From a virus (lineage: Duplodnaviria > Caudoviricetes): DNA of 64,000 bases. The stretch is from IMG/VR virus record IMGVR_UViG_3300033121_001571; one strand, written 5' to 3'. The translations under genes were made by a program, and so were the position numbers. Positions 748 through 22,002 of this stretch are shown in pieces (positions within the stretch are counted from its first letter, which is position 1; the number at the start of each line of letters is the position of its first letter). The notes beneath the pieces were generated by a model. The model was given only the letters and a program-made list of their open reading frames with translations, was not told where the DNA came from and searched no databases.

Positions 748-753
748 TGATTT

Positions 754-6826: not shown

Positions 6827-7097
6827 TCCTGATTGAAATGATCATTTCACCGTCATCTAACACAACCGCTCGCAGCTGATCATCATACGGCAAACAATCA
6901 AATTCACGGACAAAACGAGCTCCAGAATTTTGTTCGTGCAAACTTGCTCGCCGTTTATTGATTCTTTTCCAATTTGAAATATTCAAGGAAGGTTTCTCGT
7001 CTTCTGGCGGAAAGAATTGACTTGCGACACAACCTGGATTTTTCTGAATAAATTTCACTATTTCTTCTTTGCACAACTCAGTTGTGATTTTTTTCAT
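6813..7097 (-). CDS. phage hypothetical protein, leaderless
   Basis: Promoter GTGCAA-17-TAAAAT-6-ATG at 7132..7095. Confidence 0.75.
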   Translation of the reverse strand: MKKITTELCKEEIVKFIQKNPGCVASQFFPPEDEKPSLNISNWKRINKRRASLHEQNSGARFVREFDCLPYDDQLRAVVLDDGEMIISIRIESE

Positions 7098-7197
7098 GTT
7101 CTCATTTTACCATTCAACAGCACATCTTGCACTCAGCAACAACGGCACTCGTTGCTCCCAGATTTCCCTCAGAATAATCTTCTTGACTTTTATTGAG

Positions 7198-7454
7198 TCA
7201 CCCCAACACAAACATGATGAATTTTCTAAACCAGCTTAGAACCTCACTGTCAGAAGTCACTCTAAGAAATGAAGCGTCCCACTCGCTGCTGCGCCATCTC
7301 CAAAATCGATCGCTTCAGATTCACTGATAGTGACTCCGTACTCTCTTTGTATCAGCTCTCGAATCTTGTGGATGTCACCGTTGTCATAGTACGTGCTAGA
7401 CACGTCATTTCTAATCTGAAATGCTTTTGACACAAGTTTTTGATCAATCTTCAC
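7198..7454 (-). pseudogene. Frameshifted hypothetical gene, or sequencing indel
   Basis: One extra base in the T4 run (7302-7305) continues ...AIDF into WRWRSSEWDASFLRV... to a stop at 7198. Confidence 0.55.
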
Positions 7455-7466
7455 AAGAGCTCCTTT

Positions 7467-7694
7467 TTAATGATGAAGTGTTATTTCGTAGGATATGTTC
7501 AATTTTTTCATGAACACATAACTTATTATAACAACTTTATTTCGATCAAGATCAAAAACGCAACAGGAGTCCCACTGACACTCTGACAAGACTAAAACTA
7601 TCCGTTCAGCCAGTGACGTCTTGCCAGCGTAGTGAAGAACTAACTCTCCAGTTTTGTAACTATTTCTAAGTGTTGTCATGTGATTAAAAACCAA
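7467..7694 (-). CDS. xGD-family small protein
   Basis: YKTGELVL. Confidence 0.65.
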   Translation of the reverse strand: MVFNHMTTLRNSYKTGELVLHYAGKTSLAERIVLVLSECQWDSCCVFDLDRNKVVIISYVFMKKLNISYEITLHH

Positions 7695-7870
7695 AGATCC
7701 ATATCACGTTGGAATACTGCGGAAATTGTGTTGTAACTAAGTGAATAGGTGTGATACAAGTCACCGTACAGTGAATTTGTAGACGTGATCTTCAAGATCA
7801 AGAAAATTTCACTGTAAATTTCTAAAAATATCAGTTGACCAACTTTGAGTTTTGTGTGTTTAAGTTTCAA
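7676..7870 (-). CDS. xGD-family small protein
   Basis: LKVGQLIF. Confidence 0.65.
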   Translation of the reverse strand: MKLKHTKLKVGQLIFLEIYSEIFLILKITSTNSLYGDLYHTYSLSYNTISAVFQRDMDLWFLIT

Positions 7871-7976
7871 CTGTCTTTAATAGATCGTCTCGAACAACGA
7901 GAATGATATTTGTGGTGTAAGTGATAAACAACACAGTTATAAGACACACAAACACCAATATTCTAGGGAGAAATCT

Positions 7977-8288
7977 TCAGTCATAATCACAACCAGGTGG
8001 CAATGGCGGAAACAAGCAGTCAGATCTAACACGCATATATCTTTTCTTAGACAGACAAAAGATCACAGAGTTACCACTCAAAGTGTCTGGTCCCAAATAG
8101 ATTGATGGTTGATCAAAGTGTAGCTGACACGACGCTTGAATGTTTGCCGGGATGTACTCCAGGTACACGATATCACCAAGAGAAAACTTGTGTCTACTCA
8201 AAGAACACTTTGTCGAGCGGGTAGAGACACGTAAGTGGAAAAGAACACACTGTGTTATCTGATACACAAAACACTTTGTAAAACTCAT
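7977..8288 (-). CDS. xGD-family small protein (true start probably near 8200)
   Basis: FSLGDIVY. Confidence 0.55.
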   Translation of the reverse strand: MSFTKCFVYQITQCVLFHLRVSTRSTKCSLSRHKFSLGDIVYLEYIPANIQASCQLHFDQPSIYLGPDTLSGNSVIFCLSKKRYMRVRSDCLFPPLPPGCDYD

Positions 8289-8451
8289 TCCTATATACTT
8301 TTATGTCCTTGTTGTTATCGATCTGCATTATGATGACTAGATAATGTGAAAACTCACTTTGCTCTGAACGTAAAAATGTTATCCATGGATGAGAAGTACT
8401 TGAGCAGGCTGCTCCGATAACACGGAACTCACCACAGGTTGGTTTTATCAT
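8194..8451 (-). CDS. xGD-family small protein
   Basis: PTCGEFRV; coupled. Confidence 0.6.
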   Translation of the reverse strand: MIKPTCGEFRVIGAACSSTSHPWITFLRSEQSEFSHYLVIIMQIDNNKDIKVYRNEFYKVFCVSDNTVCSFPLTCLYPLDKVFFE

Positions 8452-8642
8452 GATCGCAACTTGTGTAGATGACAGTTTGAAACAAAAAAAGTTTGATTTT
8501 TACCATAGAAATCAAAGACTAACGAACCCGGCCAACGCGTGTTAGTGTTCAATATCAACACTATATTTGGACAACGTCGTCCGTTAAATACAACATCTGT
8601 ATTAACATCTGATCCCCAAACAACTATGTCTCCAACTTTCAC
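8448..8642 (-). CDS. xGD-family small protein
   Basis: MKVGDIVVW...LHKL. Confidence 0.75.
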   Translation of the reverse strand: MKVGDIVVWGSDVNTDVVFNGRRCPNIVLILNTNTRWPGSLVFDFYGKNQTFFVSNCHLHKLRS

Positions 8643-8643
8643 T

Positions 8644-8868
8644 CTATACGCCTTTGTAAACTGTCAACTTGTGCAGATAACTGGAAAAAGCGTAGTGGAA
8701 CGTGTTGTCGTATATCGCTAACACTAAACATATGTTGTTGACAATCTCTAAGATTAGCACTAGATCAGAAATGTTAAATTTTTCAAGATCACTCTCAGAG
8801 AAGAACTCAGAGTCAACAGAAATAAAGTTCCAAACAACTATGTCTCCAACTTTCAACTTAGGCATCAC
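8644..8868 (-). CDS. xGD-family small protein
   Basis: LKVGDIVVW...LHKL. Confidence 0.75.
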   Translation of the reverse strand: MMPKLKVGDIVVWNFISVDSEFFSESDLEKFNISDLVLILEIVNNICLVLAIYDNTFHYAFSSYLHKLTVYKGV

Positions 8869-9071
8869 TGCACAACAGCAACTGTCACTTTACACAAGTG
8901 ATGAAATGAATAGTAACGAACAGTGTAGGTCGGCAGGTGAATAGCTGCAACAACACTCTCAAGTATTTCTAATACTAACACCATGCCAGCGTTTTCTTCA
9001 CGTATACGTGAAGGTAAATCTCCATGCGAATAGTGGATGTATGCCAAATCTCCGGCTCTTATGTTTTTCAC
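8865..9071 (-). CDS. xGD-family small protein
   Basis: IRAGDLAY. Confidence 0.7.
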   Translation of the reverse strand: MKNIRAGDLAYIHYSHGDLPSRIREENAGMVLVLEILESVVAAIHLPTYTVRYYSFHHLCKVTVAVVQ

Positions 9072-9194
9072 ATTTCATTCTATCACTTAGAGAAAAACTT
9101 TTCACCCAAAGCGGTTTATGCTTTTTGCACTATCTCATTATCAAAATTAGAATTAGTCTGAATAGCGAACAATCACCAACTTGAAATTCATAGA

Positions 9195-9611
9195 TCAGAT
9201 CAAGGATCTTTCAATAAAGGCATTCAACGAAGGTACAAAGTGTAATTCTTGGATCTTCAAAAATTGAATAGACGGTATGTTACTTTTAACATATAGACTT
9301 CCATCCACAATACAAAGAATGTTAACATATTGCTTGTTCTCTGAAAGAATAAGCACGAGGTTTCTGACAAAGTAATCTTTTACAAAAGGTGGAATTAGTG
9401 TTGTCCACAAAACAATCTCGCCGGGTTCAATGATCCTAGAGTGTCTGTCTTTCACTTGTTCTTCAACTCTGCGTACGTTGTTGTCATGCCACTTTTCAGT
9501 GCAACTTGAAAATATAACTCTTCTATTCTCGTTATCACCATTTTCACTCTTCAAGTCTTTCAGTGTGCGAATCGATCTTAACCAGGCAGCTCCCATTTTG
9601 AATAAGCTCAA
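9195..9611 (-). CDS. xGD-family protein with N-terminal extension (start uncertain)
   Basis: IEPGEIVLWTTL, paralog of 9803..10027. Confidence 0.6.
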   Translation of the reverse strand: MSLFKMGAAWLRSIRTLKDLKSENGDNENRRVIFSSCTEKWHDNNVRRVEEQVKDRHSRIIEPGEIVLWTTLIPPFVKDYFVRNLVLILSENKQYVNILCIVDGSLYVKSNIPSIQFLKIQELHFVPSLNAFIERSLI

Positions 9612-9774
9612 AAACTTTTTTGTGTTCCAAACCCATAAGAAGCCAGTTGTTTAGTTTGTAGCCAAAAAACATAAAGACAAAATAGTGTTTAAACCAGTCT
9701 TTGTCTTCGAAGACATAGTTGCTTACTGGTTTTAGAGCTACAACACACAAGTCTCCGACTTTTATGTTTTTCAT
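9544..9774 (-). CDS. xGD-family small protein (GDLC subfamily)
   Basis: IKVGDLCVV. Confidence 0.75.
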   Translation of the reverse strand: MKNIKVGDLCVVALKPVSNYVFEDKDWFKHYFVFMFFGYKLNNWLLMGLEHKKVFELIQNGSCLVKIDSHTERLEE

Positions 9775-9802
9775 TTCGCTTAAATCGAAATGTCTTTGAT
9801 CT

Positions 9803-10027
9803 TTAACAGGTGATTTTAGTTATTTGATGCTTAACAACTGGACATCTGCCACCCGGAGGAAACAAGTATAAGACTTCACAATAAAGATCATTGACAATTT
9901 TAAGAATCATGACAACGTTCCTGCTAAAGTAACCTCTTGGAAAAGGTGAATCTAACGTTGTCCACAAGACTATCTCTCCAACTTCTATGTTCTGTTGTTT
10001 TTTGTCTCTCATTTCTTGAATAACCAA
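9803..10027 (-). CDS. xGD-family small protein
   Basis: IEVGEIVLWTTL. Confidence 0.7.
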   Translation of the reverse strand: MVIQEMRDKKQQNIEVGEIVLWTTLDSPFPRGYFSRNVVMILKIVNDLYCEVLYLFPPGGRCPVVKHQITKITC

Positions 10028-10284
10028 TTTGTGCTTGACGTTACACCTTTGATGTTATTGCTTAAATAGCAAGTGTCATAACACTCTTCTCTACGCAGTT
10101 TGTGAAGATGACACAAAAAAACTTCTTTTACACGTGCTTTGCGTTTAGCGATGAGATTATTCAGAGATAAGACTTTACACTTGAGATCACCAACTTCAAT
10201 GACAAACACAAGTGCGTCAACAGCGTCCTTTACAGTTAGAGGAGAAAGATAGTGCAATGAAACTAGATCACCAGCTTTTATCAT
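10009..10284 (-). CDS. xGD-family small protein
   Basis: IKAGDLVS. Confidence 0.7.
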   Translation of the reverse strand: MIKAGDLVSLHYLSPLTVKDAVDALVFVIEVGDLKCKVLSLNNLIAKRKARVKEVFLCHLHKLRREECYDTCYLSNNIKGVTSSTNWLFKK

Positions 10285-10346
10285 CTTACTTTGTTCTTAA
10301 GAGCAATAATGCACAATGAACTGATTAAATCGTCTGTCTTGAAACA

Positions 10347-10580
10347 TCACTTAACGAAGATCACACTGTCAATAGAGTGCAACACTCTGTTGTACACAGA
10401 AAAAGTTTCGTTCCTCATGTCTAACACGAAGAAAAAAACGTCCGAAAGAGCATCCGGATCTTTACACAAGACCACAACTAGTCTACCGTGGAGATCTTCT
10501 GAGCAATTTGTCACGGGCGCTCCAGATGACAGCAAACACAAGTCTCCGACTTTGATCTCGTTATCTTTCATCTTTTGCAC
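10347..10580 (-). CDS. xGD-family small protein (GDLC subfamily)
   Basis: MKDNEIKVGDLCL. Confidence 0.75.
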   Translation of the reverse strand: MQKMKDNEIKVGDLCLLSSGAPVTNCSEDLHGRLVVVLCKDPDALSDVFFFVLDMRNETFSVYNRVLHSIDSVIFVK

Positions 10581-10788
10581 TTTTAATGGCTATCTCTTCA
10601 AGAGGGCGTAAATAACTTACGTACTCATTAAAAACCCTCCCGTGCATGTCTACTAAGACGCACCGACCGTTCTTCTTTTTACGCAAAAACATGACCAAAT
10701 ATTCAAAAACGAAATCTACTGTGATGAGGAACTTCCCGTAAGGAAACAACGCTACAACACACAAGTCTCCTGGTTTAAAGTGTTTCAC
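10561..10788 (-). CDS. xGD-family small protein (GDLC subfamily)
   Basis: FKPGDLCVV. Confidence 0.75.
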   Translation of the reverse strand: MKHFKPGDLCVVALFPYGKFLITVDFVFEYLVMFLRKKKNGRCVLVDMHGRVFNEYVSYLRPLEEIAIKSAKDER

Positions 10789-11081
10789 AGCTCGTCAAAG
10801 TCAAACAAAGAGCGTGAAGCGACATACACAACTGAAGGTCTAAAATCATCTCTAAAATCATAGACTGGTCTACAACCGTCTCTAGGAACGTTCTCAAGCG
10901 CAGGACTCAACACGAGTATGCCTATTAGGCTGTCACGTACGTAGCGTAGCGAAGCGAGGACGGGACAGACGTCCAACACAAGAACTATCTTCCAGTCGCC
11001 AGTCGAACTGTTGATCCAACACATGAGTTTTCCAACGTCACTCTCTTTAACGATTGCTATGGGGAACATCTTTAAACTCAT
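10785..11081 (-). CDS. xGD-family small protein (GKL subfamily)
   Basis: DVGKLMCW, IVLVLD. Confidence 0.7.
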   Translation of the reverse strand: MSLKMFPIAIVKESDVGKLMCWINSSTGDWKIVLVLDVCPVLASLRYVRDSLIGILVLSPALENVPRDGCRPVYDFRDDFRPSVVYVASRSLFDFDEL

Positions 11082-11332
11082 GACAAGGCAATCTTAACCA
11101 ACTTGTGACTCTTACGTCGTGGTTGCCACGATTTCACTCTGATCTTTGCCTCTGCACCCAGTTCTAAAAGAGAACACTGTTTTCTGTTGTTCTTGTAACC
11201 CAAGAAGACGTAGACGCAGTAGTAAAGGTGCCAAAATTCATCAAGTGAATCTCCGTGAGAGATGATGCACAAGTCTCCGATCTTGATCTCTTCACCGTTC
11301 ATCTCTTGAATTTCAGCCCAAACAAGCTCCAC
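11078..11332 (-). CDS. xGD-family small protein (GDLC subfamily)
   Basis: IKIGDLCII, YVFLG. Confidence 0.75.
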   Translation of the reverse strand: MELVWAEIQEMNGEEIKIGDLCIISHGDSLDEFWHLYYCVYVFLGYKNNRKQCSLLELGAEAKIRVKSWQPRRKSHKLVKIALS

Positions 11333-11523
11333 ATCGATACAGTGTGTACTGTTCTATCATCAATCTTAAAGACTTTGTAATAAACACCGTATCCTGTGGT
11401 AACACTGATAATCATCACAATATCAGACATCTGAGGCCTTGCGAACTGCTGAGGTGTAAAGTAACACAAGTTACCCACCTTCAGACCCGAGCTGTCACTC
11501 ATATTGCACTTCACCAAACTCAA
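11299..11523 (-). CDS. xGD-family small protein
   Basis: LKVGNLCY. Confidence 0.7.
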   Translation of the reverse strand: MSLVKCNMSDSSGLKVGNLCYFTPQQFARPQMSDIVMIISVTTGYGVYYKVFKIDDRTVHTVSMWSLFGLKFKR

Positions 11524-11734
11524 GCAAGAAATCTTTGTGCACTACTCTCACTTTGAGAGTGGCAGTGCACAGCACGATAGCACAACTGGTATCACTGTAA
11601 AAAGGGGGGAAAGTATAAGCTCTCAAAAAGACCACAACTCTCAACGTTGGGTTAGCCCAGAGCATCAAGCTTCCCGGGTCTATCTCTCTAGTTCTCGTGG
11701 TCTCGTTTTGAGAGTGTCGTCTTATCACAATCAC
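11495..11734 (-). CDS. xGD-family small protein
   Basis: IDPGSLML. Confidence 0.65.
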   Translation of the reverse strand: MIVIRRHSQNETTRTREIDPGSLMLWANPTLRVVVFLRAYTFPPFYSDTSCAIVLCTATLKVRVVHKDFLLEFGEVQYE

Positions 11735-11743
11735 AAGACTGTC

Positions 11744-11935
11744 CTAGATCAGATCAAACAAGTAAATCATGCTGACTCTGTACACAATGCGCTTGTTAAA
11801 AGAATACACAGTGTACAAGTCACTCTGATGGGACACACGTCCCAAGACAAACACAATGTTCCAATTTTGTCTATGGTCATGTGGAATCTCCTCGTCCATC
11901 AATTTTCCCGGGATTATCAGCATTTTCTTGTCCAA
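11744..11935 (-). CDS. xGD-family small protein
   Basis: IPGKLM, IVFVLG. Confidence 0.65.
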   Translation of the reverse strand: MDKKMLIIPGKLMDEEIPHDHRQNWNIVFVLGRVSHQSDLYTVYSFNKRIVYRVSMIYLFDLI

Positions 11936-12207
11936 TTTACAGGAACATTGTCAAGCGAGACAACGTAATTACGTACATAGACACCGACGTGGAGATTATT
12001 CAAATTTAACACGTAACAGAGTTCATAGTGATTTTTTTTGTGTTTCAACATGCCAAGATAAACACTGAGTGTCTTAGAGAGTTCATCGTTGCTAAAAGGC
12101 GGAACTTTGGTCCCTACGGAGACCACGCACAAATCTCCTACTTTGATCTCGTTATCTTTCATCTTTTGCACTTTTCTTAGTGTCTCCCAACGAACAACGT
12201 CACTCAC
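11917..12207 (-). CDS. xGD-family small protein (GDLC subfamily)
   Basis: MKDNEIKVGDLCVV. Confidence 0.75.
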   Translation of the reverse strand: MSDVVRWETLRKVQKMKDNEIKVGDLCVVSVGTKVPPFSNDELSKTLSVYLGMLKHKKNHYELCYVLNLNNLHVGVYVRNYVVSLDNVPVNWTRKC

Positions 12208-12472
12208 TCTCGGCTGTCAACTGAAATTCAGTGTCAGACAGAGGGAAGTACTTGTGATAAATCTTCATAGTTGTGTCATGAAAAGTTTTCGTCAAGCGTT
12301 CAGAGAGCAAGAAAACTATGATGGAAACGTAGTCAGTGCTCTGTTTGCAAACACACAGAACAATCGCTAAGTTATCTTTGACGTACTCTCGAGAGATCCT
12401 CTGTTGAGGATCAACACGCTCGTCTTTATATCCAAACACCACAAGATCTCCCGGCTTGACCATGACTTTCAC
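12200..12472 (-). CDS. xGD-family small protein
   Basis: VKPGDLVVF. Confidence 0.75.
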   Translation of the reverse strand: MKVMVKPGDLVVFGYKDERVDPQQRISREYVKDNLAIVLCVCKQSTDYVSIIVFLLSERLTKTFHDTTMKIYHKYFPLSDTEFQLTAESE

Positions 12473-12708
12473 TCTTTGCTTTGAAGTGGGAGCTTAACAA
12501 ACTTCCAGTAAAAACGATCCAAGACTCTACGCACTTTAAAAATATTGTCTTCTATGTTAAGAAAACAGTAGTGTTTGTCAGAACCCTGTCGACCCAAGAA
12601 CACGTACACGTACCACAGCGATCGCCAATCTGGATCAGCGTTTGGATCATAGTCACGGTCAACAATCAAACACAAGTCTCCGACTTTGATGTTCTTGTTA
12701 AATTTCAT
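12469..12708 (-). CDS. xGD-family small protein (GDLC subfamily)
   Basis: IKVGDLCLI, YVFLG. Confidence 0.75.
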   Translation of the reverse strand: MKFNKNIKVGDLCLIVDRDYDPNADPDWRSLWYVYVFLGRQGSDKHYCFLNIEDNIFKVRRVLDRFYWKFVKLPLQSKE

Positions 12709-12718
12709 CTTTTGCGAT

Positions 12719-12979
12719 CTAGTTGATGATCACTCTGTGAATAGAGTGAACAACGCGGCGAAAGTGAATCACGACTCTTAATGTTGTCAAATCATATACA
12801 TAACACTTTTGCCAAGCACTCGACTGGGAGACTACAGTGCACAGATAGATCACAAGGCTATTATAAAGATCACCTCTCTGGATGTGTACTTTGTAATAGC
12901 CGTCGACGAGGTCTCTGCGTGCTACAACGCACAAGTCTCCTGGTTTGTGCTGATCGTAGTTCATGTCAGGATCTGACAC
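12719..12979 (-). CDS. xGD-family small protein (GDLC subfamily)
   Basis: HKPGDLCVV. Confidence 0.75.
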   Translation of the reverse strand: MSDPDMNYDQHKPGDLCVVARRDLVDGYYKVHIQRGDLYNSLVIYLCTVVSQSSAWQKCYVYDLTTLRVVIHFRRVVHSIHRVIIN

Positions 12980-12980
12980 A

Positions 12981-13208
12981 CTAGCGTGGGAGCTTAACTA
13001 TCTGAAAGATCTTAGGGTTATAAATCGTACGCACCCACGCACCCTCTGTTTCCAAGATCAAAAGATTGAACTCACTCTTGTTGCTGTTCCAGCCCAAGAA
13101 GACACAGATCGGGTAACGCAAGTGCCAATCTCTTTGAAAAGCAGGACGTTCTCTTGCTCCGGTGCACAAGTCTCCCACTTTGATCTCTTGATCTTTCATC
13201 TTTTGCAC
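12981..13208 (-). CDS. xGD-family small protein (GDLC subfamily)
   Basis: MKDQEIKVGDLC, CVFLG. Confidence 0.75.
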   Translation of the reverse strand: MQKMKDQEIKVGDLCTGARERPAFQRDWHLRYPICVFLGWNSNKSEFNLLILETEGAWVRTIYNPKIFQIVKLPR

Positions 13209-13520: not shown

Positions 13521-13718
13521 TTACTCCAAGTCAGACAACTGAGCTGCTTTTGTTGTGAGCACTCTGCGAGTTTCAGTGCAGAACACTCTGTACAGACTGT
13601 CGTCAATAAAATCCAACACAAGAACAGTCGTTCGTGCGTGATCATAGTAAGACACGGTGCCTGGCTGACTAAACCAGCGCATACTCACCAGCTTTCCTCT
13701 AGCTATCGTTGTGATCAA
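13521..13718 (-). CDS. xGD-family small protein (GKL subfamily)
   Basis: IARGKLVS, RVFC. Confidence 0.65.
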   Translation of the reverse strand: MITTIARGKLVSMRWFSQPGTVSYYDHARTTVLVLDFIDDSLYRVFCTETRRVLTTKAAQLSDLE

Positions 13719-14045
13719 ACTTTGACCAGATTTCTGCTCGGGATTTTTTCTGCTCGGGATTTTTTGAGTGCTGCAGATCTGCGTACAACTTGACTTTGCT
13801 CGGGATTTTTTGAGTACAGCGTGTGAAAGCTACTTCTGACTTAACTTTGACCAGATTTCTGCTCGGGATTTTTCTGCTCGGGATTTTTTCTGCTCGGGAT
13901 TTTTTGAGTGCGATGAGCCCTGGCGTCCTCTGCTCTCTAGTTCCCTAGAAAGGTTGCCAGACCCCACCCAGCCCCGGGGCCAAATATGGCCAAATATAAG
14001 GGGCCCCCTGTGGCTGTACACTGACACTAAAACAGGGGGCCTTTT
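13718..14045. repeat. Iteron-like repeat cluster with G/C-tract block
   Basis: TGCTCGGGATTTT at about 13735, 13751, 13797, 13860, 13875 and 13891; ggccaaatat x2; ggggccccc...gggggcc. Confidence 0.85.
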
Positions 14046-14050
14046 GAGGG

Positions 14051-14380
14051 CTAATCTTCGTCCACTGCGTCCATGAAAGCATCGAAGTCTGGACCTTGAA
14101 CGCTGTACCAGCACGCGCCGTACACGAAGTCGAAGATCTCGAGACCCGTCTTCTTGCTCGTGTAAGAGACGCCCTTGACTGTCTCTCCAGCGCTCAAGTT
14201 GATCGTGACAGGGTTGTTCCTTCCGAACATCTTGGTCACTGGACGACCGTCTTCCCAGGTGTCGCGGGTGTACTGAGCTTCGACCTCGACGTCCTCTCCC
14301 AGCGTGCACTCGACGATCGCAGCACCAGAGTTCTTGAGATCTTCGAAGTGCTTCACGAACGCTAACTCTTTGTTCTTCAC
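14051..14380 (-). CDS. phage hypothetical protein, leaderless
   Basis: GTGCAC-17-TACGTT-6-GTG promoter at 14415..14378; high-GC codons. Confidence 0.8.
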   Translation of the reverse strand: MKNKELAFVKHFEDLKNSGAAIVECTLGEDVEVEAQYTRDTWEDGRPVTKMFGRNNPVTINLSAGETVKGVSYTSKKTGLEIFDFVYGACWYSVQGPDFDAFMDAVDED

Positions 14381-14560
14381 GATCTCAACGTACCACGTTG
14401 TTGCACGCCGTGCACTGTAGTTCTCTGTGCAGAGAGTGCATATTGTTTCTCGACGTAGTATGTGTTAAAAATGCTCAAAGACCGATCTCATAACACTATT
14501 GGTGACGGAGTGTGGGCAGCAAGATCTCATCAAATCTCACTAAATAAACTTAGTGAATGT

Positions 14561-14592
14561 TCAAAAAGGGATCTTTGAAAGATCCCTTTTTG
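14561..14592. terminator. Bidirectional terminator-like hairpin
   Basis: caaaaagggatcttt-g-aaagatccctttttg. Confidence 0.6.
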
Positions 14593-14632
14593 CGTTAGTG
14601 CATAATTTGTCTCAAGGTGATACAGTAACTCT

Positions 14633-15265
14633 ATGCCGATCATCAAGTCTCTCAGCGACAACGGTCCCCAAGTCGTGTTGTTCGTCGGGCGGGTCGTCCG
14701 GATCGAGACGGGCACCGAGACGCGGAACTGTTCGGACACTCTGGACTTCACCGACTTCCAGTCGGTGAACGTCACCTACGCTCTCGTCTACATCGACGAG
14801 ACGCTCGTTCCTCTCTCGAGCGCCGAGAGAGAGTACACCAAGTACGCTCGTCACGAACACGGTGACAAGTTCGTGCGGGTCGACTGCACGAACATGTTCG
14901 TCTGGCGTGGTTCTCCCAGCATGACGCCCGTCGTCGACGAAATGGAGTGTACGGTCTTCGCCTCTACGTGGAAGAAGGATCTCGAGACTCGAGACGCTCT
15001 GAAACTCGAGGCCGAAGTGAAGGCGCAGCAGCTCCAGGAAGAGCGGCGCCGACTCGCTATCGAGGAACACGCTCGAAAGCTCGCTAACGTTCCGGTCCTG
15101 GGCAAGCAGATGCGAGTCGCTCGCGGGCGCAAGGTCAAGGTCGGGACGGAGGGCACCGTAGCGTTCATCCGGGGTGACAGCGTCCTCCTGAAGGAGGACA
15201 CGGTCTGGCGTGACCGCAAGGCACAGGGCGTCTGGGTGCCCGCTTCGTACCTCGAAGCTCGCTAA
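14633..15265 (+). CDS. phage hypothetical protein with C-terminal SH3-like domain, leaderless
   Basis: GTGCAT-17-TACAGT-6-ATG from 14598; C-terminal RVARGRKVKVGTEGTVAFI. Confidence 0.85.
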   Translation: MPIIKSLSDNGPQVVLFVGRVVRIETGTETRNCSDTLDFTDFQSVNVTYALVYIDETLVPLSSAEREYTKYARHEHGDKFVRVDCTNMFVWRGSPSMTPVVDEMECTVFASTWKKDLETRDALKLEAEVKAQQLQEERRRLAIEEHARKLANVPVLGKQMRVARGRKVKVGTEGTVAFIRGDSVLLKEDTVWRDRKAQGVWVPASYLEAR

Positions 15266-15281
15266 GTCATTCACTGTTGTT

Positions 15282-15317
15282 GTTCAAGAGTTGGTGGTTC
15301 CCCACCAACTCTTGAAC
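15282..15317 (+). terminator. Terminator-like hairpin
   Basis: gttcaagagttggtgg-ttcc-ccaccaactcttgaac. Confidence 0.65.
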
Positions 15318-15421
15318 TCATTTTGACACTAGAGAACCCGTGTCAACGCTCTGGAACTCCTCGCAAGTTAACGTTTTTCTCAAACATAGTAGATTCAGTC
15401 AGAGAGGAGGACTAACGAGCT

Positions 15422-15592
15422 GTGAAGAGATGGGAACATCCCAATCCGAAGTGGGACTGCGTCTGGAACGCATGGTTCATGTTCCGCGCTTCTCAGACTC
15501 TTCGCGAGGCTTCTTACTGGCTCAGCGAGTTCCAGGCCAGGCGGCGTAGGGTCAAGGGAGTGAACATCGCTGAACAAGTAGTTAGGATCTAA
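15422..15592 (+). CDS. small Trp-rich hypothetical protein (not in ORF track)
   Basis: GTTAAC-17-TAGATT promoter at 15367, SD GAGGAGG, reads MKRWEHPNPKWDCVWNAWF... Confidence 0.55.
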   Translation: MKRWEHPNPKWDCVWNAWFMFRASQTLREASYWLSEFQARRRRVKGVNIAEQVVRI

Positions 15593-16024
15593 AACAGAGG
15601 AAACAGATCATGTCGCAACCCTTTTACCCCCTGCGAAACTGCAGAGGGAAGATCGACGACGCTGAGGGGGAAATCCGACGTGCCGTGTACCCGTTGGAGA
15701 TGTGGTTGGTCTACGACAAGGTCGAGCCCCCGTACTGGGAGATGGTGGAGATGTCGTCCACCCCCACCCTCACAGACGATCGTCGTGCAAGCGTGTACCT
15801 AACTCAGCGCGAGGGCGTCTGGCGAAGTGTGGCGTACGGGACGGGTCTTGTGGGTACCCACAAGACCTTACGGGAGGCCATGTTCTACGCCGAAGAAAAC
15901 GCGCGCGTTTTCTTCGACTGAAGAGTAGAAACAGGAGACATGGTTGAGGCGGCGTAGGGTCAAGGAGTGAACATCGCTGATCCGATAGTTAGAATCTAGA
16001 ACGGAGGAAACAGATCATGTCGCA
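15538..16024 (+). repeat. ~80-bp direct repeats (gene end + promoter + SD + start) flanking ORF 15610..15921
   Basis: aggcggcgtagggtcaagg(g)agtgaacatcgctga...gaggaaacagatcatgtcgca at ~15538-15617 and ~15946-16024. Confidence 0.85.
15610..15921 (+). CDS. phage hypothetical protein
   Basis: Own promoter (15560) and SD GAGG. Confidence 0.8.
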   Translation: MSQPFYPLRNCRGKIDDAEGEIRRAVYPLEMWLVYDKVEPPYWEMVEMSSTPTLTDDRRASVYLTQREGVWRSVAYGTGLVGTHKTLREAMFYAEENARVFFD

Positions 16025-16241
16025 CCGTGCTCGAGTCTACCACAACATCGAGAGTCTGGCTCGTATCACCCACGCTCGCCGGGCTCGTCGTCGGTGGAAG
16101 CTCCACGTGGAGAAGCACGGGAACGTCCCTCTGGTCGACAAGTGTTCGATCTGTCGCGAGCACGACGCGAAGAGCACTCCGAGGCGCTACCTGGAAGGCG
16201 AGGCGCGCATTCCCAAGCGCGTCCGCGATCTCACGGAGTGA
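16017..16241 (+). CDS. small basic hypothetical protein with CxxC
   Basis: Own promoter (15967), SD GGAGG; stop TGA lies in the next -35 box. Confidence 0.75.
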   Translation: MSHRARVYHNIESLARITHARRARRRWKLHVEKHGNVPLVDKCSICREHDAKSTPRRYLEGEARIPKRVRDLTE

Positions 16242-16272
16242 ATAGACGACCCAATTGGGATAGATTGGGTTC

Positions 16273-16632
16273 ATGAAGACCACCACCAAGAAGCGTCTCA
16301 CCAAGAAGCGTCTCGCCGAGTCCAGCATGGAAGAACTCGTGTGGGACCTGTGGAGTTCCTACTCGGAGTCGGACGTCGACGGCGTCTGTGGAGTTCTTCC
16401 CTGTTGGGGTCCCTACTCCGACGAGAACGGCGAAGATATCGATCAGGACAAGGCGCGTGAAACGTTGAAGGAGACGATCAGGAACAAGTCTCACCTCAGC
16501 GAAAGTGCACTCGACGATGTCCTGTTCTCGATCGAGGCGCTCCGGGAACGCACTTCCTACGACGAGCGATGGGTTGCGAAGAACGTGAAGAACTGGACGA
16601 TCATCCTTTTGGATGACCAGAAGTCCCAGTAA
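16273..16632 (+). CDS. phage hypothetical protein, leaderless
   Basis: GTGAAT-17-TAGATT-6-ATG from 16238. Confidence 0.8.
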   Translation: MKTTTKKRLTKKRLAESSMEELVWDLWSSYSESDVDGVCGVLPCWGPYSDENGEDIDQDKARETLKETIRNKSHLSESALDDVLFSIEALRERTSYDERWVAKNVKNWTIILLDDQKSQ

Positions 16633-16703
16633 AGTCCAAGTCCTAAACTCGACCTGAGTTAACATTCTCTCTGGTTGGGATATAGTTGTCTCAACCAGAG
16701 AAA

Positions 16704-16757
16704 AGGTCGAAACCCCCGCAAGGGGGTCGCACCGTCACGCGGTGCCTGACGAGACCT
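16704..16757 (+). ncRNA. Type II hammerhead ribozyme
   Basis: AGGUC-GAAA-CCCCC(GCAA)GGGGG-UC^-GCACCG(UCACG)CGGUGC-CUGACGA-GACCU: all core nucleotides and three perfect stems. Confidence 0.93.
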
Positions 16758-16767
16758 GAAGGTGAAC

Positions 16768-17010
16768 ATGAACCAGATTCTCAACGAGATCTTGTTTGGT
16801 CTGTTGCGCCGTCACGCTCCCGATCGTAAGCGATACCTCTTCTTGCGGATCGAAGATCCCTCTGGCGCGGTGACGTTCTCTGTCGTCCCCGTGGATGACC
16901 GCAGCGTTCACCCGATGCACATGATGGAGTCGATGATCGGGTGGCAGAACGATGACTGGGACGCTCAGGTGGCGCTCTCTCGTCGAGTCACCGTAGAGCG
17001 TCGTTCCTGA
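16768..17010 (+). CDS. hypothetical protein downstream of the hammerhead
   Basis: SD-like GAAGGTG before the ATG; promoter GTTAAC-17-TATAGT at 16658. Confidence 0.7.
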   Translation: MNQILNEILFGLLRRHAPDRKRYLFLRIEDPSGAVTFSVVPVDDRSVHPMHMMESMIGWQNDDWDAQVALSRRVTVERRS

Positions 17011-17248
17011 CAGTCACTCTGCGAGATTTCTCGCGAAGAGCTTTCTCTGCAGTTTTTCTCTTCGCGTGCAAGAGGTACACGATGTAAGCGCGTGACCGTA
17101 TGAGCGCCGGGGCGAGCGACATGTCTGTGATTATCTGTTCGATCGCTCGAAGACGTGCCACGTAGCTCTGCCTCAGAGCGACTTCTATGTCCAAGAGATC
17201 TTGGAGATCTTGCTTGATGAAGCGCGAGACGTGGTACCAAAACTTCAC
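16988..17248 (-). CDS. hypothetical protein
   Basis: SD AGGAG upstream. Confidence 0.65.
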   Translation of the reverse strand: MKFWYHVSRFIKQDLQDLLDIEVALRQSYVARLRAIEQIITDMSLAPALIRSRAYIVYLLHAKRKTAEKALREKSRRVTVRNDALR

Positions 17249-17457
17249 TTTGTCTCCTTTGGTGTCACGTTTAGATCACTCCCACATCAGAGCACGCCAG
17301 ACTACGTCTGCGTACATGTACGCGATGAAGAATAGCACGAGGAACGCTACGAACCCACCGGGTTCATAACCTCCACGGAAGAATCTGTTTCTTGTGTCAA
17401 GAGGCTCCGCCAGCGGAGGTCCTGATCGAGATCCAGTTCCTGAGCCTCGAGCGAGAA

Positions 17458-17760
17458 TCACTGCTTCCACCCAAACGCGGCCGCGACTGCAACCACTGCT
17501 GTGAGCAAGAAGATCCACGTCAGGACCACTCTGCGATAGCGAGCGTCTGCTCGCTCGTTCGCAGCAATGACTTCATCGAGTCCCATCAAAGGGCACGGTT
17601 CATAGGGAGCGATAATGGGCGGGGGTGGCGGAGCTCGTCTCCCGTAACGTCTCTTGTGCTCTGGCACTTTGTGGACTACGTACTCACAGTCTTCACAGCA
17701 CACGTGATCGCTAGAGCGAGACGTTGCCTCGCCACAGTGTCGACAACGTGCTTCAGTCAT
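17458..17760 (-). CDS. Zn-finger-like protein with C-terminal TM helix
   Basis: CRHC...CEDC, Pro-rich linker, hydrophobic C-terminus. Confidence 0.6.
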   Translation of the reverse strand: MTEARCRHCGEATSRSSDHVCCEDCEYVVHKVPEHKRRYGRRAPPPPPIIAPYEPCPLMGLDEVIAANERADARYRRVVLTWIFLLTAVVAVAAAFGWKQ

Positions 17761-18220
17761 GATCCCATTCTTCGACTTTAAAGCCCTCCGCAGTCGCGAC
17801 GACGAGCACGTGGTCACCGAACACGTCAAGCAGGACTTCGTCACACCTGTAGCACGCGGCTTCGAGGGCCTCGAACTCCTTCACCAGCTTCTTCTCGGCG
17901 GGCGTACCCTTCTTGTGATCGAAGAACCCAGACGCGCACCCGTCACCGTGACAGTACTCTTCAGTGTTGTCTTTGAGATTGATGTCTGACCTGACCTGAC
18001 TGGGATCGATCTTCAACTCAAATGTGTTGACAGAGAACGTGCAGGCTTCTCCGTCGTTCCAGTACGGCGTGTACTGAGTCCACATGACCGCTTTGGCCAT
18101 AGGGTTCTCAGAGAAGAACTCCTTGAATGCGTTCTTAAGTACAGACTCCCCCTCGCGTATATACTTCTTGCGAGCCTCTTCGATTTCCTCCGCAAGCTTC
18201 TCCATCTTATTCGTTAACAA
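17753..18220 (-). CDS. conserved phage protein (TQYTPYWNDG motif), neighbour of the DUF6915-like gene
   Basis: WTQYTPYWNDGEACTF; SD AGGAG. Confidence 0.75.
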   Translation of the reverse strand: MLTNKMEKLAEEIEEARKKYIREGESVLKNAFKEFFSENPMAKAVMWTQYTPYWNDGEACTFSVNTFELKIDPSQVRSDINLKDNTEEYCHGDGCASGFFDHKKGTPAEKKLVKEFEALEAACYRCDEVLLDVFGDHVLVVATAEGFKVEEWDHD

Positions 18221-18245
18221 GCTCTTTGTCTCCTTTGTCTAGTGT

Positions 18246-18599
18246 CTAATCAATCTTAATGAACTTTGTGGGTGACTTCCGGCGTACGCCACCCATCCAG
18301 TCTTCCACTTTCATGTTCCTGAGCCACTTCTCAGGCGTGGGAATGAAGCCAAGATCTTCAATCACGTGGTCTTCACCCAAGTCTCTGACGCAGACTTTTC
18401 GTCCGTCACTGTTCGTGATCGTCGGACCAAACACGCGCTCGAGCACGAAGATGCCGAACGTGGAGTGAAGCAGAGCTCTGTGACGAGTGTCAGCGAGAGT
18501 CGCTTTCGACGAGTCGAAGAAATCGTGAACGGCTTGGTAGTCTTCCGGAACTCCACCGTACTTCTTGGCAGAGTTCTTCGCGTGTTGGTACGGTTTCAT
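18246..18599 (-). CDS. DUF6915-like protein
   Basis: MKPYQHA..SAKKYGG, HDFFDSSK, HRALLHS, GEDHVIEDLGFIP. Confidence 0.8.
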   Translation of the reverse strand: MKPYQHAKNSAKKYGGVPEDYQAVHDFFDSSKATLADTRHRALLHSTFGIFVLERVFGPTITNSDGRKVCVRDLGEDHVIEDLGFIPTPEKWLRNMKVEDWMGGVRRKSPTKFIKID

Positions 18600-18606
18600 T
18601 GCCCTC

Positions 18607-18801
18607 TCAGAGGAGACGTTTTCGTATCGCTAGCGCGTCTGCAGCAACGTCTTTGCTCGCTCGCAGCTCGTCGAGAGCAAGACGGTACGCTTCGGAGTAC
18701 TCCGGGTGCTCACAGATCTTGATCAACCTGTGCTTGTGTTCTGGCGCAAACTGCAGAGCGCCAAGCAAGTAGAGCAAAGACGTTTTTTCTTTGTCGTTCA
18801 T
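18607..18801 (-). CDS. hypothetical protein
   Basis: Promoter GTGTAC-17-TAGAGT upstream. Confidence 0.65.
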   Translation of the reverse strand: MNDKEKTSLLYLLGALQFAPEHKHRLIKICEHPEYSEAYRLALDELRASKDVAADALAIRKRLL

Positions 18802-18866
18802 GGCGCACGCGGTTCGGAGCAAGTGCTCCGAACCGTGACTCTACCCTTTCTGAGAGAGACGTACAC

Positions 18867-19148
18867 TCAGTACAGAGGAAAGTCTTCGACCTTGTAGACC
18901 CTCAGGGGTTCGCAGAACCACATGCACTCGTTGAAGTGCTCGAGTGCATCACGCACTTCGTCCTCCTGCAGGAGCTCACCGTCGACCCCTCGCTTTCGAA
19001 GCACTCGAGCGTTGCGCTCCATCACGAGACGCTCTGCGTCGGAGAGCGACGGGAGCACACCGATGAACCTGACCTCACGATCCGAAGTGGGATCGAGATC
19101 TTCCGAAAAGACGATCGTCATTTCCGAGTTGTTGGAGGTGTTGTCCAT
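18867..19148 (-). CDS. hypothetical protein, leaderless
   Basis: GTGAAT-17-TAGAAC-6-ATG (19183..19146). Confidence 0.8.
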   Translation of the reverse strand: MDNTSNNSEMTIVFSEDLDPTSDREVRFIGVLPSLSDAERLVMERNARVLRKRGVDGELLQEDEVRDALEHFNECMWFCEPLRVYKVEDFPLY

Positions 19149-19179
19149 GAACTAGTTCTACCCTCAAGAGGGAAGAGAT

Positions 19180-19395
19180 TCACTCCGCCGCGAGCGCAAA
19201 CGTGTAACAACAGTGCCACCTGACTAACTCAGGATTGGGTGAAAACTTAAGTACGAGCAGGAAGCCATCACTCATGGCGCGCAAGTACATACCAGTGACA
19301 AAATCAAAGTTAATGACGTTATATGCTACGATATCACCCACTCGGGCGTCATCAGGATTAAAGGCTGGTATGTGCTTGCGCGAGCTTATCACCAT
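19180..19395 (-). CDS. xGD-family small protein (central satellite cluster)
   Basis: ARVGDIVAY. Confidence 0.65.
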   Translation of the reverse strand: MVISSRKHIPAFNPDDARVGDIVAYNVINFDFVTGMYLRAMSDGFLLVLKFSPNPELVRWHCCYTFALAAE

Positions 19396-19494
19396 TCACC
19401 TAGAACGGTTCTCTGTCACTTCTCAGTGACCCACGAATATCTTTCAATGACTTAGGGTGGGTACCTATGGCTTAAACCCAAGTGTGTTTGTGGG

Positions 19495-19683
19495 TCACTC
19501 TGTGGGTTTGCACAGGTGTGCACACCACTCGCCCGACCAGTAACTGACTTTCCCAGTTGGGAGTTCTATCACTATGTACTGTGGATATCGAAGAGGTCGA
19601 TAGACAACTCCTGCAACAAGCGCTACGTACTCGCGACTGAGGTTAGTCGCGTGGTAAACCAGGTCGCCGACTGAGATCTTCAC
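19495..19683 (-). CDS. xGD-family small protein
   Basis: ISVGDLVY. Confidence 0.7.
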   Translation of the reverse strand: MKISVGDLVYHATNLSREYVALVAGVVYRPLRYPQYIVIELPTGKVSYWSGEWCAHLCKPTE

Positions 19684-19894
19684 GCTTAGAGATCACTTTC
19701 ACGAAGTCGTTCCTAAAGATCCAGATGACTTTGCATGAAGACGTTAAGACAATGTAGTCAAACACGCTCTTCACGTAAGAAGGTCGCGTTAACACGACTC
19801 CTATGTGATCTGGAGCACCGTAACCGTCATAGTCGGCAAGGTCTTCATCTAGACACCAGACTGCAACCAGATCGCCGACTTTGACCTCTTTCAT
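19643..19894 (-). CDS. xGD-family small protein
   Basis: MKEVKVGDLVAV, IGVVL. Confidence 0.7.
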   Translation of the reverse strand: MKEVKVGDLVAVWCLDEDLADYDGYGAPDHIGVVLTRPSYVKSVFDYIVLTSSCKVIWIFRNDFVKVISKREDLSRRPGLPRD

Positions 19895-20190
19895 TTCACT
19901 GTGCTCTCTTGAGCAGAGAGCTTCACTCTTGAGTTCTTCAAGTGCTTCTGACACTCTTCCAGAGAGTCATTGCAAAGGGCTGCTAATAGCTTCACTCCCA
20001 AGCAATTATCTGCGTGGTACGGAAGCTCCATACGACCGGAGTTCCAAGACATGCAACAGAACGCGCACGTCCGCCACAACGAATGCTCCTGGTAATCGTC
20101 GACTTGCTCGAGCAGACACGGAACAGTGTTCCGAAGTTCCTCGATTGAGGAGGAGTCTGGAAAGAAGAGAATGTTCTTGTGAAGGATCAC
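19891..20190 (-). CDS. hypothetical protein with CxxC/HxxxC
   Basis: CAFC, HADNC; coupled. Confidence 0.6.
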   Translation of the reverse strand: MILHKNILFFPDSSSIEELRNTVPCLLEQVDDYQEHSLWRTCAFCCMSWNSGRMELPYHADNCLGVKLLAALCNDSLEECQKHLKNSRVKLSAQESTVK

Positions 20191-20468
20191 TTCAGTGAGA
20201 TCTTGATCACGTCAGTTGGAATGCCCTTCCACCCGTCTGTTGGGTGAAAGAAGACTGTTGCTACGGTGCCATTCCCAGCGACGAGACGTGGGCCCTTCGA
20301 GGTGAGAATCTTTCCGAACCGGATCTTCCCACCCAAGTACTTTTTGATCTTTGGGATCTCTATGTCCGGGAGACCCAACGCGCCAGATGAGGCGTACGTT
20401 GCAGCGGAAGCATCCAAGAACGCCTCTGCTGCTTTCTCTGAAATGATATTTGCTGTCTTGATCTTCAT
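20187..20468 (-). CDS. hypothetical protein
   Basis: Clean ORF. Confidence 0.65.
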   Translation of the reverse strand: MKIKTANIISEKAAEAFLDASAATYASSGALGLPDIEIPKIKKYLGGKIRFGKILTSKGPRLVAGNGTVATVFFHPTDGWKGIPTDVIKISLK

Positions 20469-20563
20469 TGCTCTCGGGTCTACGTATACGAGAGCAAGAG
20501 ATCGTTAACTGATGAAGCGTTTCTTGTCTTTCTTGTTAACTCTATCTTTCTTGAGAGAAGAGT

Positions 20564-20908
20564 TCACTCTGGCAAGAGACAACCGTTGTCAGACAACCAC
20601 TTCATATTCTTCTCGTACGTGGCAGCGTCTGCTTTGACGAAAGGAACACTCCCTGACCAGACCCACTCGTCTCCCATCCAGACGTATACGTCCATCACGT
20701 CTGTGAAAGCAGGTACGTTGCGCTTAGGAAGCACGCAGAACTCCCAAGCGTAGATGGGATTCTCCGACTTGTGCTTCTCACAGTGATCCACGAGATAAGC
20801 GTGGAAAGACTCGTACGCTCCGGGCCATTGCTTCCACATCTTCTCGATGTCGTCGAGACTGAGTCCTCTGTGGTTTAACATCTTTTTTCCTTGGGACTTG
20901 GTCTCCAT
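20564..20908 (-). CDS. hypothetical protein, leaderless
   Basis: GTGAAC-17-TAGATT-6-ATG (20943..20906). Confidence 0.8.
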   Translation of the reverse strand: METKSQGKKMLNHRGLSLDDIEKMWKQWPGAYESFHAYLVDHCEKHKSENPIYAWEFCVLPKRNVPAFTDVMDVYVWMGDEWVWSGSVPFVKADAATYEKNMKWLSDNGCLLPE

Positions 20909-21049
20909 GAACCCAATCTACCATTTCAAGGACGAAAGTTCACTCGTCCTCTTCGTCTTCTTTGCCGTAGTGAAACTCTGCGGCTTCGTCACCGTACATG
21001 CTGGCTAGCAGGGCAAATTAAGCGTTAAGGAAGGAGAGAAGAATCAAGC

Positions 21050-21273
21050 GCGGGCGCAACCCGCGTGAATAAATCCAGAGTCTGCATGACCTTGTCCCTT
21101 CTTCTCAGCACAGTTCGTCGTGGTGAGTGCTTTCTCTAGACGCTGGAAGCGAACAACTAGAGACAAGCGAGTTTCACTACATCTCACCTAAGAATTGCTC
21201 TAGGTGAGGAACAATGTCATGCGGGCGCAACCCGCGTGAATAAATCCAGAGTCTGCATGACCTTGTCCCTTCT
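21050..21273. repeat. Two identical 53-bp direct repeats with a hairpin, 118-bp spacer
   Basis: gcgggcgcaacccgcgtgaataaatccagagtctgcatgaccttgtcccttct at 21050-21102 and 21221-21273. Confidence 0.9.
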
Positions 21274-21356
21274 CCGTTTAGGAATAGACCAGGCCTTTGG
21301 CAACTGGTCCTTGTTGCATCACCACCTGACCAGAGTATACTCTGGTCAAGAGAACC

Positions 21357-21608
21357 TTACACCGAGGAGAAAACCTTCGCCAGGATCTCGTCGTGATCCT
21401 TCGTGGTCATCTTGAGCCACTTGTGGTACAACCCGCGGTGCTCGCGAGGGAAGTCGCTCAGCGAGAGCTGATCAGCAACGATTTCGCTCACCTCTTCGCT
21501 TCCGAAGCTCCCGTCGGAATCACCCGCATCGGAAGCGATTCCGCTCCAGACAGAGAGAAGAACTCGTTCGAGAACGTTGAACTCTTCCTTCGTCAGATTG
21601 ATTCCCAT
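21357..21608 (-). CDS. hypothetical protein, leaderless
   Basis: GTGTAT-17-TAGAAC-6-ATG. Confidence 0.8.
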   Translation of the reverse strand: MGINLTKEEFNVLERVLLSVWSGIASDAGDSDGSFGSEEVSEIVADQLSLSDFPREHRGLYHKWLKMTTKDHDEILAKVFSSV

Positions 21609-21684
21609 GAACTAGTTCTACCTCTTCTAGACCTGCGATACACTGCGAGTGCAGGGACCTTCGCGCGCTACGCGCGCGGGAGTT

Positions 21685-22002
21685 TCACTTCCACTCGCAA
21701 TCCCGGACCTTCTTGTCCACGGGACCCATGTTCATGGAGTGAGGCTCGCCACAGACGTACACCTTCTTGTGAAGAGGGACGTACGTCTTCTTCTTGTTGA
21801 CGCTCACGATGAGCTCGGGAAGCACGACGCTCGTCATCGGCGCAGCTTTCACTGCGGGAGGATCCTCGCGGTGATTCGTGGTCTTCTTGTTCTCCGAACG
21901 CAGAGCAGCGCTCTTCCTCTCCCAGCGAAGCTCGTCCTGAGCCTGCGACACTGCGGCGTACGAGAGAACCAGAGCGATGATGGAGAGTGCGGTGGTCTTC
22001 AT
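21685..22002 (-). CDS. exported/signal-peptide hypothetical protein, leaderless
   Basis: N-terminal signal peptide; GTGAAC-17-TAAAAC-6-ATG. Confidence 0.8.
   Translation of the reverse strand: MKTTALSIIALVLSYAAVSQAQDELRWERKSAALRSENKKTTNHREDPPAVKAAPMTSVVLPELIVSVNKKKTYVPLHKKVYVCGEPHSMNMGPVDKKVRDCEWK

Follow-up and report, generated by a model that had tools for sequence, protein, structure and literature searches.

A type II hammerhead ribozyme between a phage promoter-like site and a small orphan gene in a Caudoviricetes virus

Introduction

It is established that type II hammerhead ribozymes are associated with phages and sit just ahead of genes (PMC3088659), and hammerheads of this type cleave in vivo in D. 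vulgaris (PMC8782182). A 2019 review calls the purpose of phage and bacterial hammerheads 'largely elusive', with the glmS ribozyme the only well-understood bacterial case (PMC6765202). Here we describe a type II hammerhead at positions 16704-16757, on the plus strand, of a 64,000-nucleotide stretch of virus DNA (IMG/VR record IMGVR_UViG_3300033121_001571; Duplodnaviria, Caudoviricetes), referred to below as the window. The element lies between a phage promoter-like site and a small open reading frame (ORF), P0001.

The closest described group is the Rfam family of type II hammerheads (RF02276; PMC3088659), with which the window site shares the core, the GUC triplet, the topology and the conserved unpaired-type A before stem II, as well as the phage-borne setting directly upstream of a ribosome-binding site. 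Members of that family have a loop I of about 10 nt and, in the majority, a tail pseudoknot, whereas the window site has a short G-UNACG-C loop and scores under the gathering score; it also has an A-U pair at the foot of stem II and follows a promoter-like site rather than a stop codon. In the haloviruses HF1 and HF2, an early transcript has the hammerhead HHphage 13 nt ahead of the start codon of its first ORF, and the mapped 5' end of this transcript falls within 3 nt of the cut (PMC3088659). Like HHphage, the window site is proposed to stand at the head of a phage mRNA, with 15 nt between core base A9 and the AUG; HHphage, however, has a variant structure that, to judge by its analogue HHmeta, may depend on high salt or Mg2+, and it belongs to an archaeal, multi-gene transcript, while the window site has a canonical core and would head one small gene. 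The clustered prophage hammerheads of the A. tumefaciens ardA region, A. caulinodans and C. scindens (PMC3088659) likewise combine a phage context and varied small genes with a position just upstream of the next gene, but they occur several to an operon and cut polycistronic RNA, in contrast to the one copy in 64 kb, with its own putative promoter, seen here.

Two further systems offer functional comparisons. RiboJ normalises 5' untranslated regions, and mRNA left uncleaved decays faster than cleaved mRNA (PMC7536230). It has the same order of promoter, hammerhead, ribosome-binding site and gene, and its cut removes promoter-derived 5' sequence to leave a 5'-OH mRNA with a defined leader; since it is engineered, takes another natural hammerhead as its base and adds a 23-nt hairpin, the likeness is one of function and not of family membership. 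The glmS ribozyme is also a self-cleaving RNA in a 5' leader, and its 5'-OH product determines mRNA decay (at the window site cleavage is predicted), but it has a different fold, a metabolite cofactor and one gene family, and no ligand pocket or switch is evident at the window site. Collins et al. are said to have reported in 2007 that the 5'-OH product of glmS is degraded by RNase J1. The window hammerhead is marked out by its place close behind a promoter-like site and by the pairing of A16704 with U16757 at the stem II foot.

Results

Sequence and fold of the hammerhead

The hammerhead is complete (Table 1). Loops cap stems I and III, stem II is left open, each of the 11 core bases is present, and the 17 stem pairs contain no mismatch. 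Stem I joins 16729-34 to 16740-45 in 6 bp plus one U.G, with UCACG as its loop, while stem III consists of 5 bp plus the A15.1-U16.1 pair (A16712-U16727). The cleavage triplet is GUC (G16726-U16727-C16728), so that base H17 is C and hence not G. Perreault et al. 2011 accepted hammerheads that keep the core consensus and have no mispair adjoining the core, at 10.1-11.1, 1.1-2.1 or 15.1-16.1 (PMC3088659); in the window the core follows the consensus and the adjoining pairs are all matched (G16753-C16708, G16729-C16745 and A16712-U16727), in agreement with those rules. Minimum-free-energy folding of 16693-16775 gives precisely the hammerhead, at -31.8 kcal/mol (z -3.2), and none of 200 shuffles was as stable.

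By motif, fold and family membership, 16704-16757 is thus a genuine type II hammerhead, for which cleavage is predicted. A preliminary description, made by reading the same DNA, had already called a type II hammerhead here, and the descriptor scan, the fold and the subclass covariance model described below agree with that call. Each of its coordinates is correct (GAAA 16709-12, cut after 16728, CUGACGA 16746-52, ATG 16768), as is its spacing of 10 nt from stem II to the ATG, and the stems it described as perfect are mismatch-free, with 5, 6 (+1) and 5 (+1) pairs in stems II, I and III, respectively.

Table 1. Positions of the hammerhead and of the features around it in the window.
Feature	Positions	Strand	Basis or remark
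Phage promoter-like site: -35 GTTAAC 16658-63, 17-nt spacer, -10 TATAGT 16681-86	16658-16686	+	Consensus scan, phage promoter grammar
Inverted repeat, arms TCTCTGGTTG and CAACCAGAGA, 10 bp perfect	16668-16701	.	Arms 16668-77 and 16692-701
Predicted transcription start, A	16693	+	Promoter grammar, 35 nt from -35 G
Hammerhead stem II, 5' strand AGGUC	16704-16708	+	Pairs with 16753-57, 5 bp
Hammerhead core G12 A13 A14 A15.1 (GAAA)	16709-16712	+	Hammerhead consensus, covariance models
Stem III hairpin CCCCC-GCAA-GGGGG, GNRA-type loop	16713-16726	+	Read from sequence, fold
U16.1 and C17	16727-16728	+	Predicted cut C16728/G16729, placed by hammerhead consensus
Stem I hairpin GCACCG-UCACG-CGGUGC	16729-16745	+	Predicted 5' end of cut mRNA; sequence, fold
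Hammerhead core C3-A9 (CUGACGA)	16746-16752	+	Hammerhead consensus, covariance models
Hammerhead stem II, 3' strand GACCU	16753-16757	+	U16757 pairs with A16704
Shine-Dalgarno-like AGGUGA	16760-16765	+	Read from sequence; 2 nt before ATG, good spacing for this anti-Shine-Dalgarno register
ORF P0001, 80 aa, orphan protein	16768-17010	+	Codon bias, codon-position GC

Chance expectation and the Rfam score

A descriptor scan for type II hammerheads over both strands of the window returned this single site. When the whole window was dinucleotide-shuffled 300 times, four shuffles gave any motif under a loose stem rule (I>=4, II>=3, III>=3) and none gave one as good as the window site; with none in 300 under strict rules, a chance origin is unlikely. 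No other ribozyme family was detected in the window at E-values up to 10, and an exact 30-mer of the ribozyme had no match in IMG/VR.

Infernal with the Rfam models, the check named in the preliminary description, did return a full-length match to RF02276 (Hammerhead_II), but its 26.6 bits fall short of the gathering score, 37 bits, with an E-value of 0.0015 in a 251-nt search and 0.37 in a search of the whole window. Rfam alone would leave the identity of the hammerhead undecided. The same model was run on 18 viral loci holding at least 21 hammerheads with the same short loop, of which about one reached 37 bits; several scored 30-33 bits and many had no reported match. As most short-loop members also fall below the threshold, the low score reflects how the model was constructed and no defect of the core.

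A short-loop subclass of type II hammerheads

Relatives were collected with two patterns. The first, with this stem III and the core fixed and stems I and II free, matched at least 120 viral contigs (rough chance expectation well under one), with up to five copies per locus; the matches listed (L005-L124) contain 125-129 distinct ribozymes, depending on the window used for calling duplicates. The second fixed the UNACG loop and the core and left all stems free. It matched at least 120 further viral contigs in IMG/VR (L126-L244), and all three stems form in 113 of the 117 matches listed. It was also found in 54 genome contigs (L245-L298) from many bacterial phyla and one haloarchaeon, of which 33 passed the stem filters.

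Across 110 listed members of the second viral set, stems II and III are 99.5% paired, although selection used stem I only, and six of the nine stem II and III pairs vary on both sides, that is, show compensatory changes. Stem I is 6 bp long and its closing G-C pair around UNACG, which the pattern did not force, is invariant in 110/110, while the loop base N varies freely (34 A, 28 G, 26 C and 25 U in the viral matches listed). Stem II has 4 bp, starting with C11.1-G10.1, and directly 5' of it stands an A, in 115 of 115 listed viral members and 32 of 33 genomic ones. The window hammerhead fits this description in its stem I (GCACCG-UCACG-CGGUGC), in C11.1-G10.1 and in A16704, the base at 'A -1'. 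The comparison points to a large, apparently pseudoknot-less G-UNACG-C subclass that is common in phages and mostly scored under the RF02276 threshold.

We built a covariance model, R1, from the 110 independent listed viral members of the subclass. In the window it finds the hammerhead at 69.6 bits (E 2.4e-23), its sole match in 64 kb. Because the collecting pattern was derived from the window site, independent evidence in this score comes from the stem pairings and from the invariant positions that the pattern did not force, and not from the letters of the core and the loop.

The window hammerhead departs from the subclass at the foot of stem II, where U16757, the first base past the 4-bp stem, forms a fifth pair with A16704. 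The same 5-bp A-U variant is present in other intact hammerheads (loci L025 and L292).

A separate feature of the subclass is a GUCAG tail after stem II, which among the matches listed is exclusive to the core CUGACGA: 11 of the 56 members with this core have it, and none of the 59 whose core is CUGAUGA or CUGAAGA. This restriction suggests the tail could pair with, and mask, core bases C3-C7. The window hammerhead is without a GUCAG tail.

Promoter and predicted start

The promoter-like site was read against a phage promoter grammar, GTGAAN-N17-TA(G/A)A(T/A)(T/C)-N6-ATG, of which there are 16 clean sites at 14000-44000 of the window, for example at 24702(-), 22037(-), 31832(+) and 16238(+). 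In these the distance from the -35 G to the ATG is a constant 35 nt, which implies many leaderless single-gene mRNAs. The motif GAGTKAAC has 16 occurrences where 7 would be expected. When the 16 grammar sites were used to train a weight matrix, the site at G16658 ranked 20th of 127,924 positions, and it is the second-highest matrix site without a following ATG; A16693 is where the ATG would fall in the phage's other promoters, and lies 11 nt before stem II. The preliminary description had placed the transcription start at about 16693, some 11 nt before the ribozyme, and the grammar and the matrix rank support this placement. Read as a sigma-70 promoter, the site is TTAACA (16659-64)-16-TATAGT, with 10 of 12 consensus matches. 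The neighbouring plus-strand genes each have a grammar promoter of their own, those at 15610 and 16017 with leaders and that at 16273 leaderless.

An inverted repeat spans the -10 element and the predicted start; as RNA it would form about 15 bp, counting G.U pairs, with no U-run after it, and it may serve as an operator or fold into an RNA hairpin. Its half-site was tried as a recurrent operator and set aside, as 11 matches in the window against 6.4 expected is unconvincing.

We also surveyed the family for promoters. Sigma-70-like sites (>=9/12) are found upstream of 2.7% of 226 listed family members, equal to the figure for control DNA 300 nt away, a survey that would miss phage promoters unlike sigma-70. 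As promoter-like sites are no commoner than in control DNA, the order promoter-hammerhead-gene is rare in the family.

The downstream gene

P0001 looks coding, with a codon bias like that of the phage's promoter-defined genes. Its GC content by codon position is 0.62/0.38/0.72 and its codon score, obtained with P0001 outside the training set, reaches +0.55 per codon in the reading frame but is negative in the other two frames (-0.48 and -0.62). GAAGGUG motifs like the AGGUGA in front of it precede start codons after other viral hammerheads. In two very large protein collections only one cluster of relatives was found, metagenomic and 95% identical; P0001 had no Pfam or PHROG family, no relative in IMG/VR and nothing usable in the ESM Atlas. 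Positions 16619-16888 are identical in two metagenome contigs that carry the P0001 relative, while the flanks differ; as the relatives are close, this identity is weak evidence.

The surrounding DNA

The window resembles part of a large (jumbo-like) phage, with many small genes and two tRNAs. Its AAA ATPase gene has 45-49% protein identity to genes on viral contigs of 184 kb and 340 kb; in these two contigs no hammerhead scored above threshold (best RF02276 match 14.2 bits, E 0.8; none with R1). Nucleotide searches with 15000-19000 and 14000-21900 found no match in deposited phage genomes.

No ORF in the 64 kb exceeds 376 aa under any genetic code tested, consistent with arrays of very small genes; other genetic codes were considered as the cause of the short ORFs, and none yields sensible long frames. 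The GC content is 35-40% in the flanks (1-13000 and 45000-64000) and 50-56% in the centre. A block at 13709-13927, where the GC content climbs from about 37-44% to about 55%, is made up of iteron-like direct repeats. Its TTTCTGCTCGGGATTTTT units recur every 16 nt and form two clusters separated by 140 nt. Exact 53-nt direct repeats, 171 nt apart, lie at 21050-21102 and 21221-21273, each starting with the hairpin GCGGG-CGCAA-CCCGC. The tRNA genes, tRNA-Arg(TCT) at 29061-29138 and tRNA-Lys(TTT) at 38341-38415, are on the minus strand, and only tRNA-Lys reached the Rfam tRNA threshold. Adjoining tRNA-Lys, a near-perfect palindrome or hairpin of about 150 nt (39008-39159) lies in the most GC-rich part of the window and matches several unrelated microRNA-precursor models on both strands, far under their thresholds.

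Discussion

The motif, its family membership, the fit of the promoter and the coding signal are observed, and from them we infer cleavage, the start of transcription and an effect on stability or translation. The hammerhead is probably part of a 75-nt leader on a single-gene transcript in a large phage, where it would set a new mRNA 5' end. Transcription from A16693, at the phage-type promoter, would give an RNA that folds once 16753-57 has emerged and cuts itself after C16728. Because the leader starts about 11 nt upstream of the ribozyme, the predicted cut would remove the 5' triphosphate together with a 36-nt fragment, which would close with the GCAA-capped stem III and carry a terminal 2',3'-cyclic phosphate. 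The remaining mRNA would begin with 5'-OH G16729, fully paired in the stem I hairpin, followed by about 22 unstructured nucleotides with AGGUGA and the AUG. As the two capped stems of the type II topology flank the cut, both products would end in hairpins, which may explain why this topology suits mRNA processing. The likely outcome would be a fixed, context-independent 5' end, as with RiboJ; the new end chemistry and the terminal hairpin would change 5'-end-dependent decay, and opening of the weak 5-bp stem II would free the ribosome-binding region.

Several points weigh against this proposal. Besides the Rfam score under threshold, a U at the position equivalent to U16757 is found in none of the 115 listed viral members of the subclass and in 2 of the 33 genomic ones. 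If the invariant A before stem II makes a tertiary contact, as its invariance suggests, the A16704-U16757 pair means that a conserved non-Watson-Crick contact may be lost and that the ribozyme could be slow. When the position of the tail and the covariation in the subclass were examined, the canonical pseudoknot of loop I with the tail was not found at the window site. In the viral sets (about 230 listed hammerheads) the median distance from the upstream stop codon to G12 is 3-5 nt, with many of these stops falling within the 5' strand of stem II, and the median from A9 to the next start codon is 26-28 nt. The upstream stop of the window hammerhead is 76 nt away, beyond the roughly 10 nt that marks intercistronic phage hammerheads, and only 4 of 107 listed members have one at 60 nt or more. 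From A9 to the AUG there are 15 nt, where the intercistronic class has about 20-35 nt, and 11 of 107 listed subclass members have 15 nt or less. No terminator-like site was found between 16632 and 16704, and as none separates the upstream gene, read-through RNA would also carry the ribozyme. Finally, the direction of any effect on stability depends on the host nucleases.

The ribozyme may act mainly on such read-through transcripts, for example from the leaderless gene at 16273-16632; its cut would separate two cistrons and leave the upstream RNA closed by stem III and the downstream RNA headed by stem I. A role of this kind is what is usually put forward for phage hammerheads, it agrees with the missing terminator and with the listed viral relatives, which sit between a stop and the next start at the median distances given above, and Perreault et al. 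showed that polycistronic prophage RNAs are cleaved (PMC3088659). Such a role is compatible with processing of a dedicated leader, but we regard it as unlikely to be the principal one, given the high-ranking phage-type promoter between the upstream stop and the ribozyme and the separate promoter of every neighbouring gene. Equilibrium folding also speaks against it, if weakly: in read-through RNA the upstream UCGACCU (16649-55) pairs with AGGUCGA (16704-10) and the predicted probability of stem II drops from 0.94 to 0.06 or less, yet shuffled upstream sequence matches this in 31-47% of trials. For that reason the loss of stem II is not evidence for a promoter-specific switch, an idea that was considered and rejected.

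Two further readings concern the ribozyme itself. It could be a hammerhead in decay, or a very slow one, that does little at present and has travelled with a gene cassette, and U16757, which breaks a rule held by all 115 listed viral members, the missing pseudoknot, the orphan status of the downstream gene and the absence of such hammerheads from the two ATPase-linked contigs all fit that picture. The intact core and stem pairs, the same A-U variant in the intact hammerheads L025 and L292, and the identity of the region in two relatives with diverged flanks do not, and we consider this reading improbable. The other reading, put forward in the preliminary description, is that loop I UCAC (16735-38) pairs with GUGA (16762-65) in the ribosome-binding site, which would make ribozyme folding compete with translation initiation or couple the two. 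The four bases are indeed complementary, GUGA lies within the Shine-Dalgarno-like AGGUGA, and in most type II hammerheads loop I pairs over at least 4 bp with the bases immediately after stem II (PMC3088659), an arrangement that the first viral set shows clearly (e.g. loop UGGCU and tail AGCCA at an offset of 0-1); some relatives with a UGACG loop also carry GUCA directly after stem II. A functional pairing receives no support from the comparison, however. Among the 115 listed viral relatives with a G-UNACG-C loop, the variable loop base does not covary with the tail, and a GUGA tail follows only 1 of 26 listed UCACG loops. GUCA is as frequent after UCACG loops (6 of 26) as after UGACG loops (5 of 28) and tracks the core CUGACGA instead. 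At the window site UCAC/GUGA is the only pseudoknot candidate, and 4-5 nt separate its start from stem II, whereas the pairing of other type II hammerheads follows the stem directly. Four of the five loop bases would be taken up with no 5' linker, which is sterically strained, and complementarity of this size is expected by chance in roughly 7-30% of cases. GUGA is more simply read as part of a well-spaced Shine-Dalgarno sequence, AGGUGA, and the suggested coupling of ribozyme folding to translation through a pseudoknot seems very improbable.

Within the favoured proposal, that of a hammerhead in the leader of a single-gene transcript, a more specific version is conceivable but doubtful, in which the element is dedicated to remodelling the 5' end from one promoter: the leader would cut itself, exchange its triphosphate for a 5'-OH on a paired hairpin and so be a natural counterpart of RiboJ. 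If this is true, other early mRNAs start at their AUG and only this gene has a self-cutting leader, which would set the lifetime of the mRNA or let it evade nucleases or sensors that depend on the 5' end. The speed of cleavage might then be tuned by the rare A16704-U16757 pair, and the released 36-nt piece with its cyclic phosphate could have a use of its own.

Most phage hammerheads lie between the genes of long transcripts, where effects on processing, stability and translation are hard to separate. A single copy between a well-defined promoter and one small gene would offer a clean test case for the effect of the cut on mRNA level and on translation. For the annotation of phage genomes it matters, too, that the short-loop, apparently pseudoknot-less subclass to which this hammerhead belongs is under-called at the Rfam threshold.

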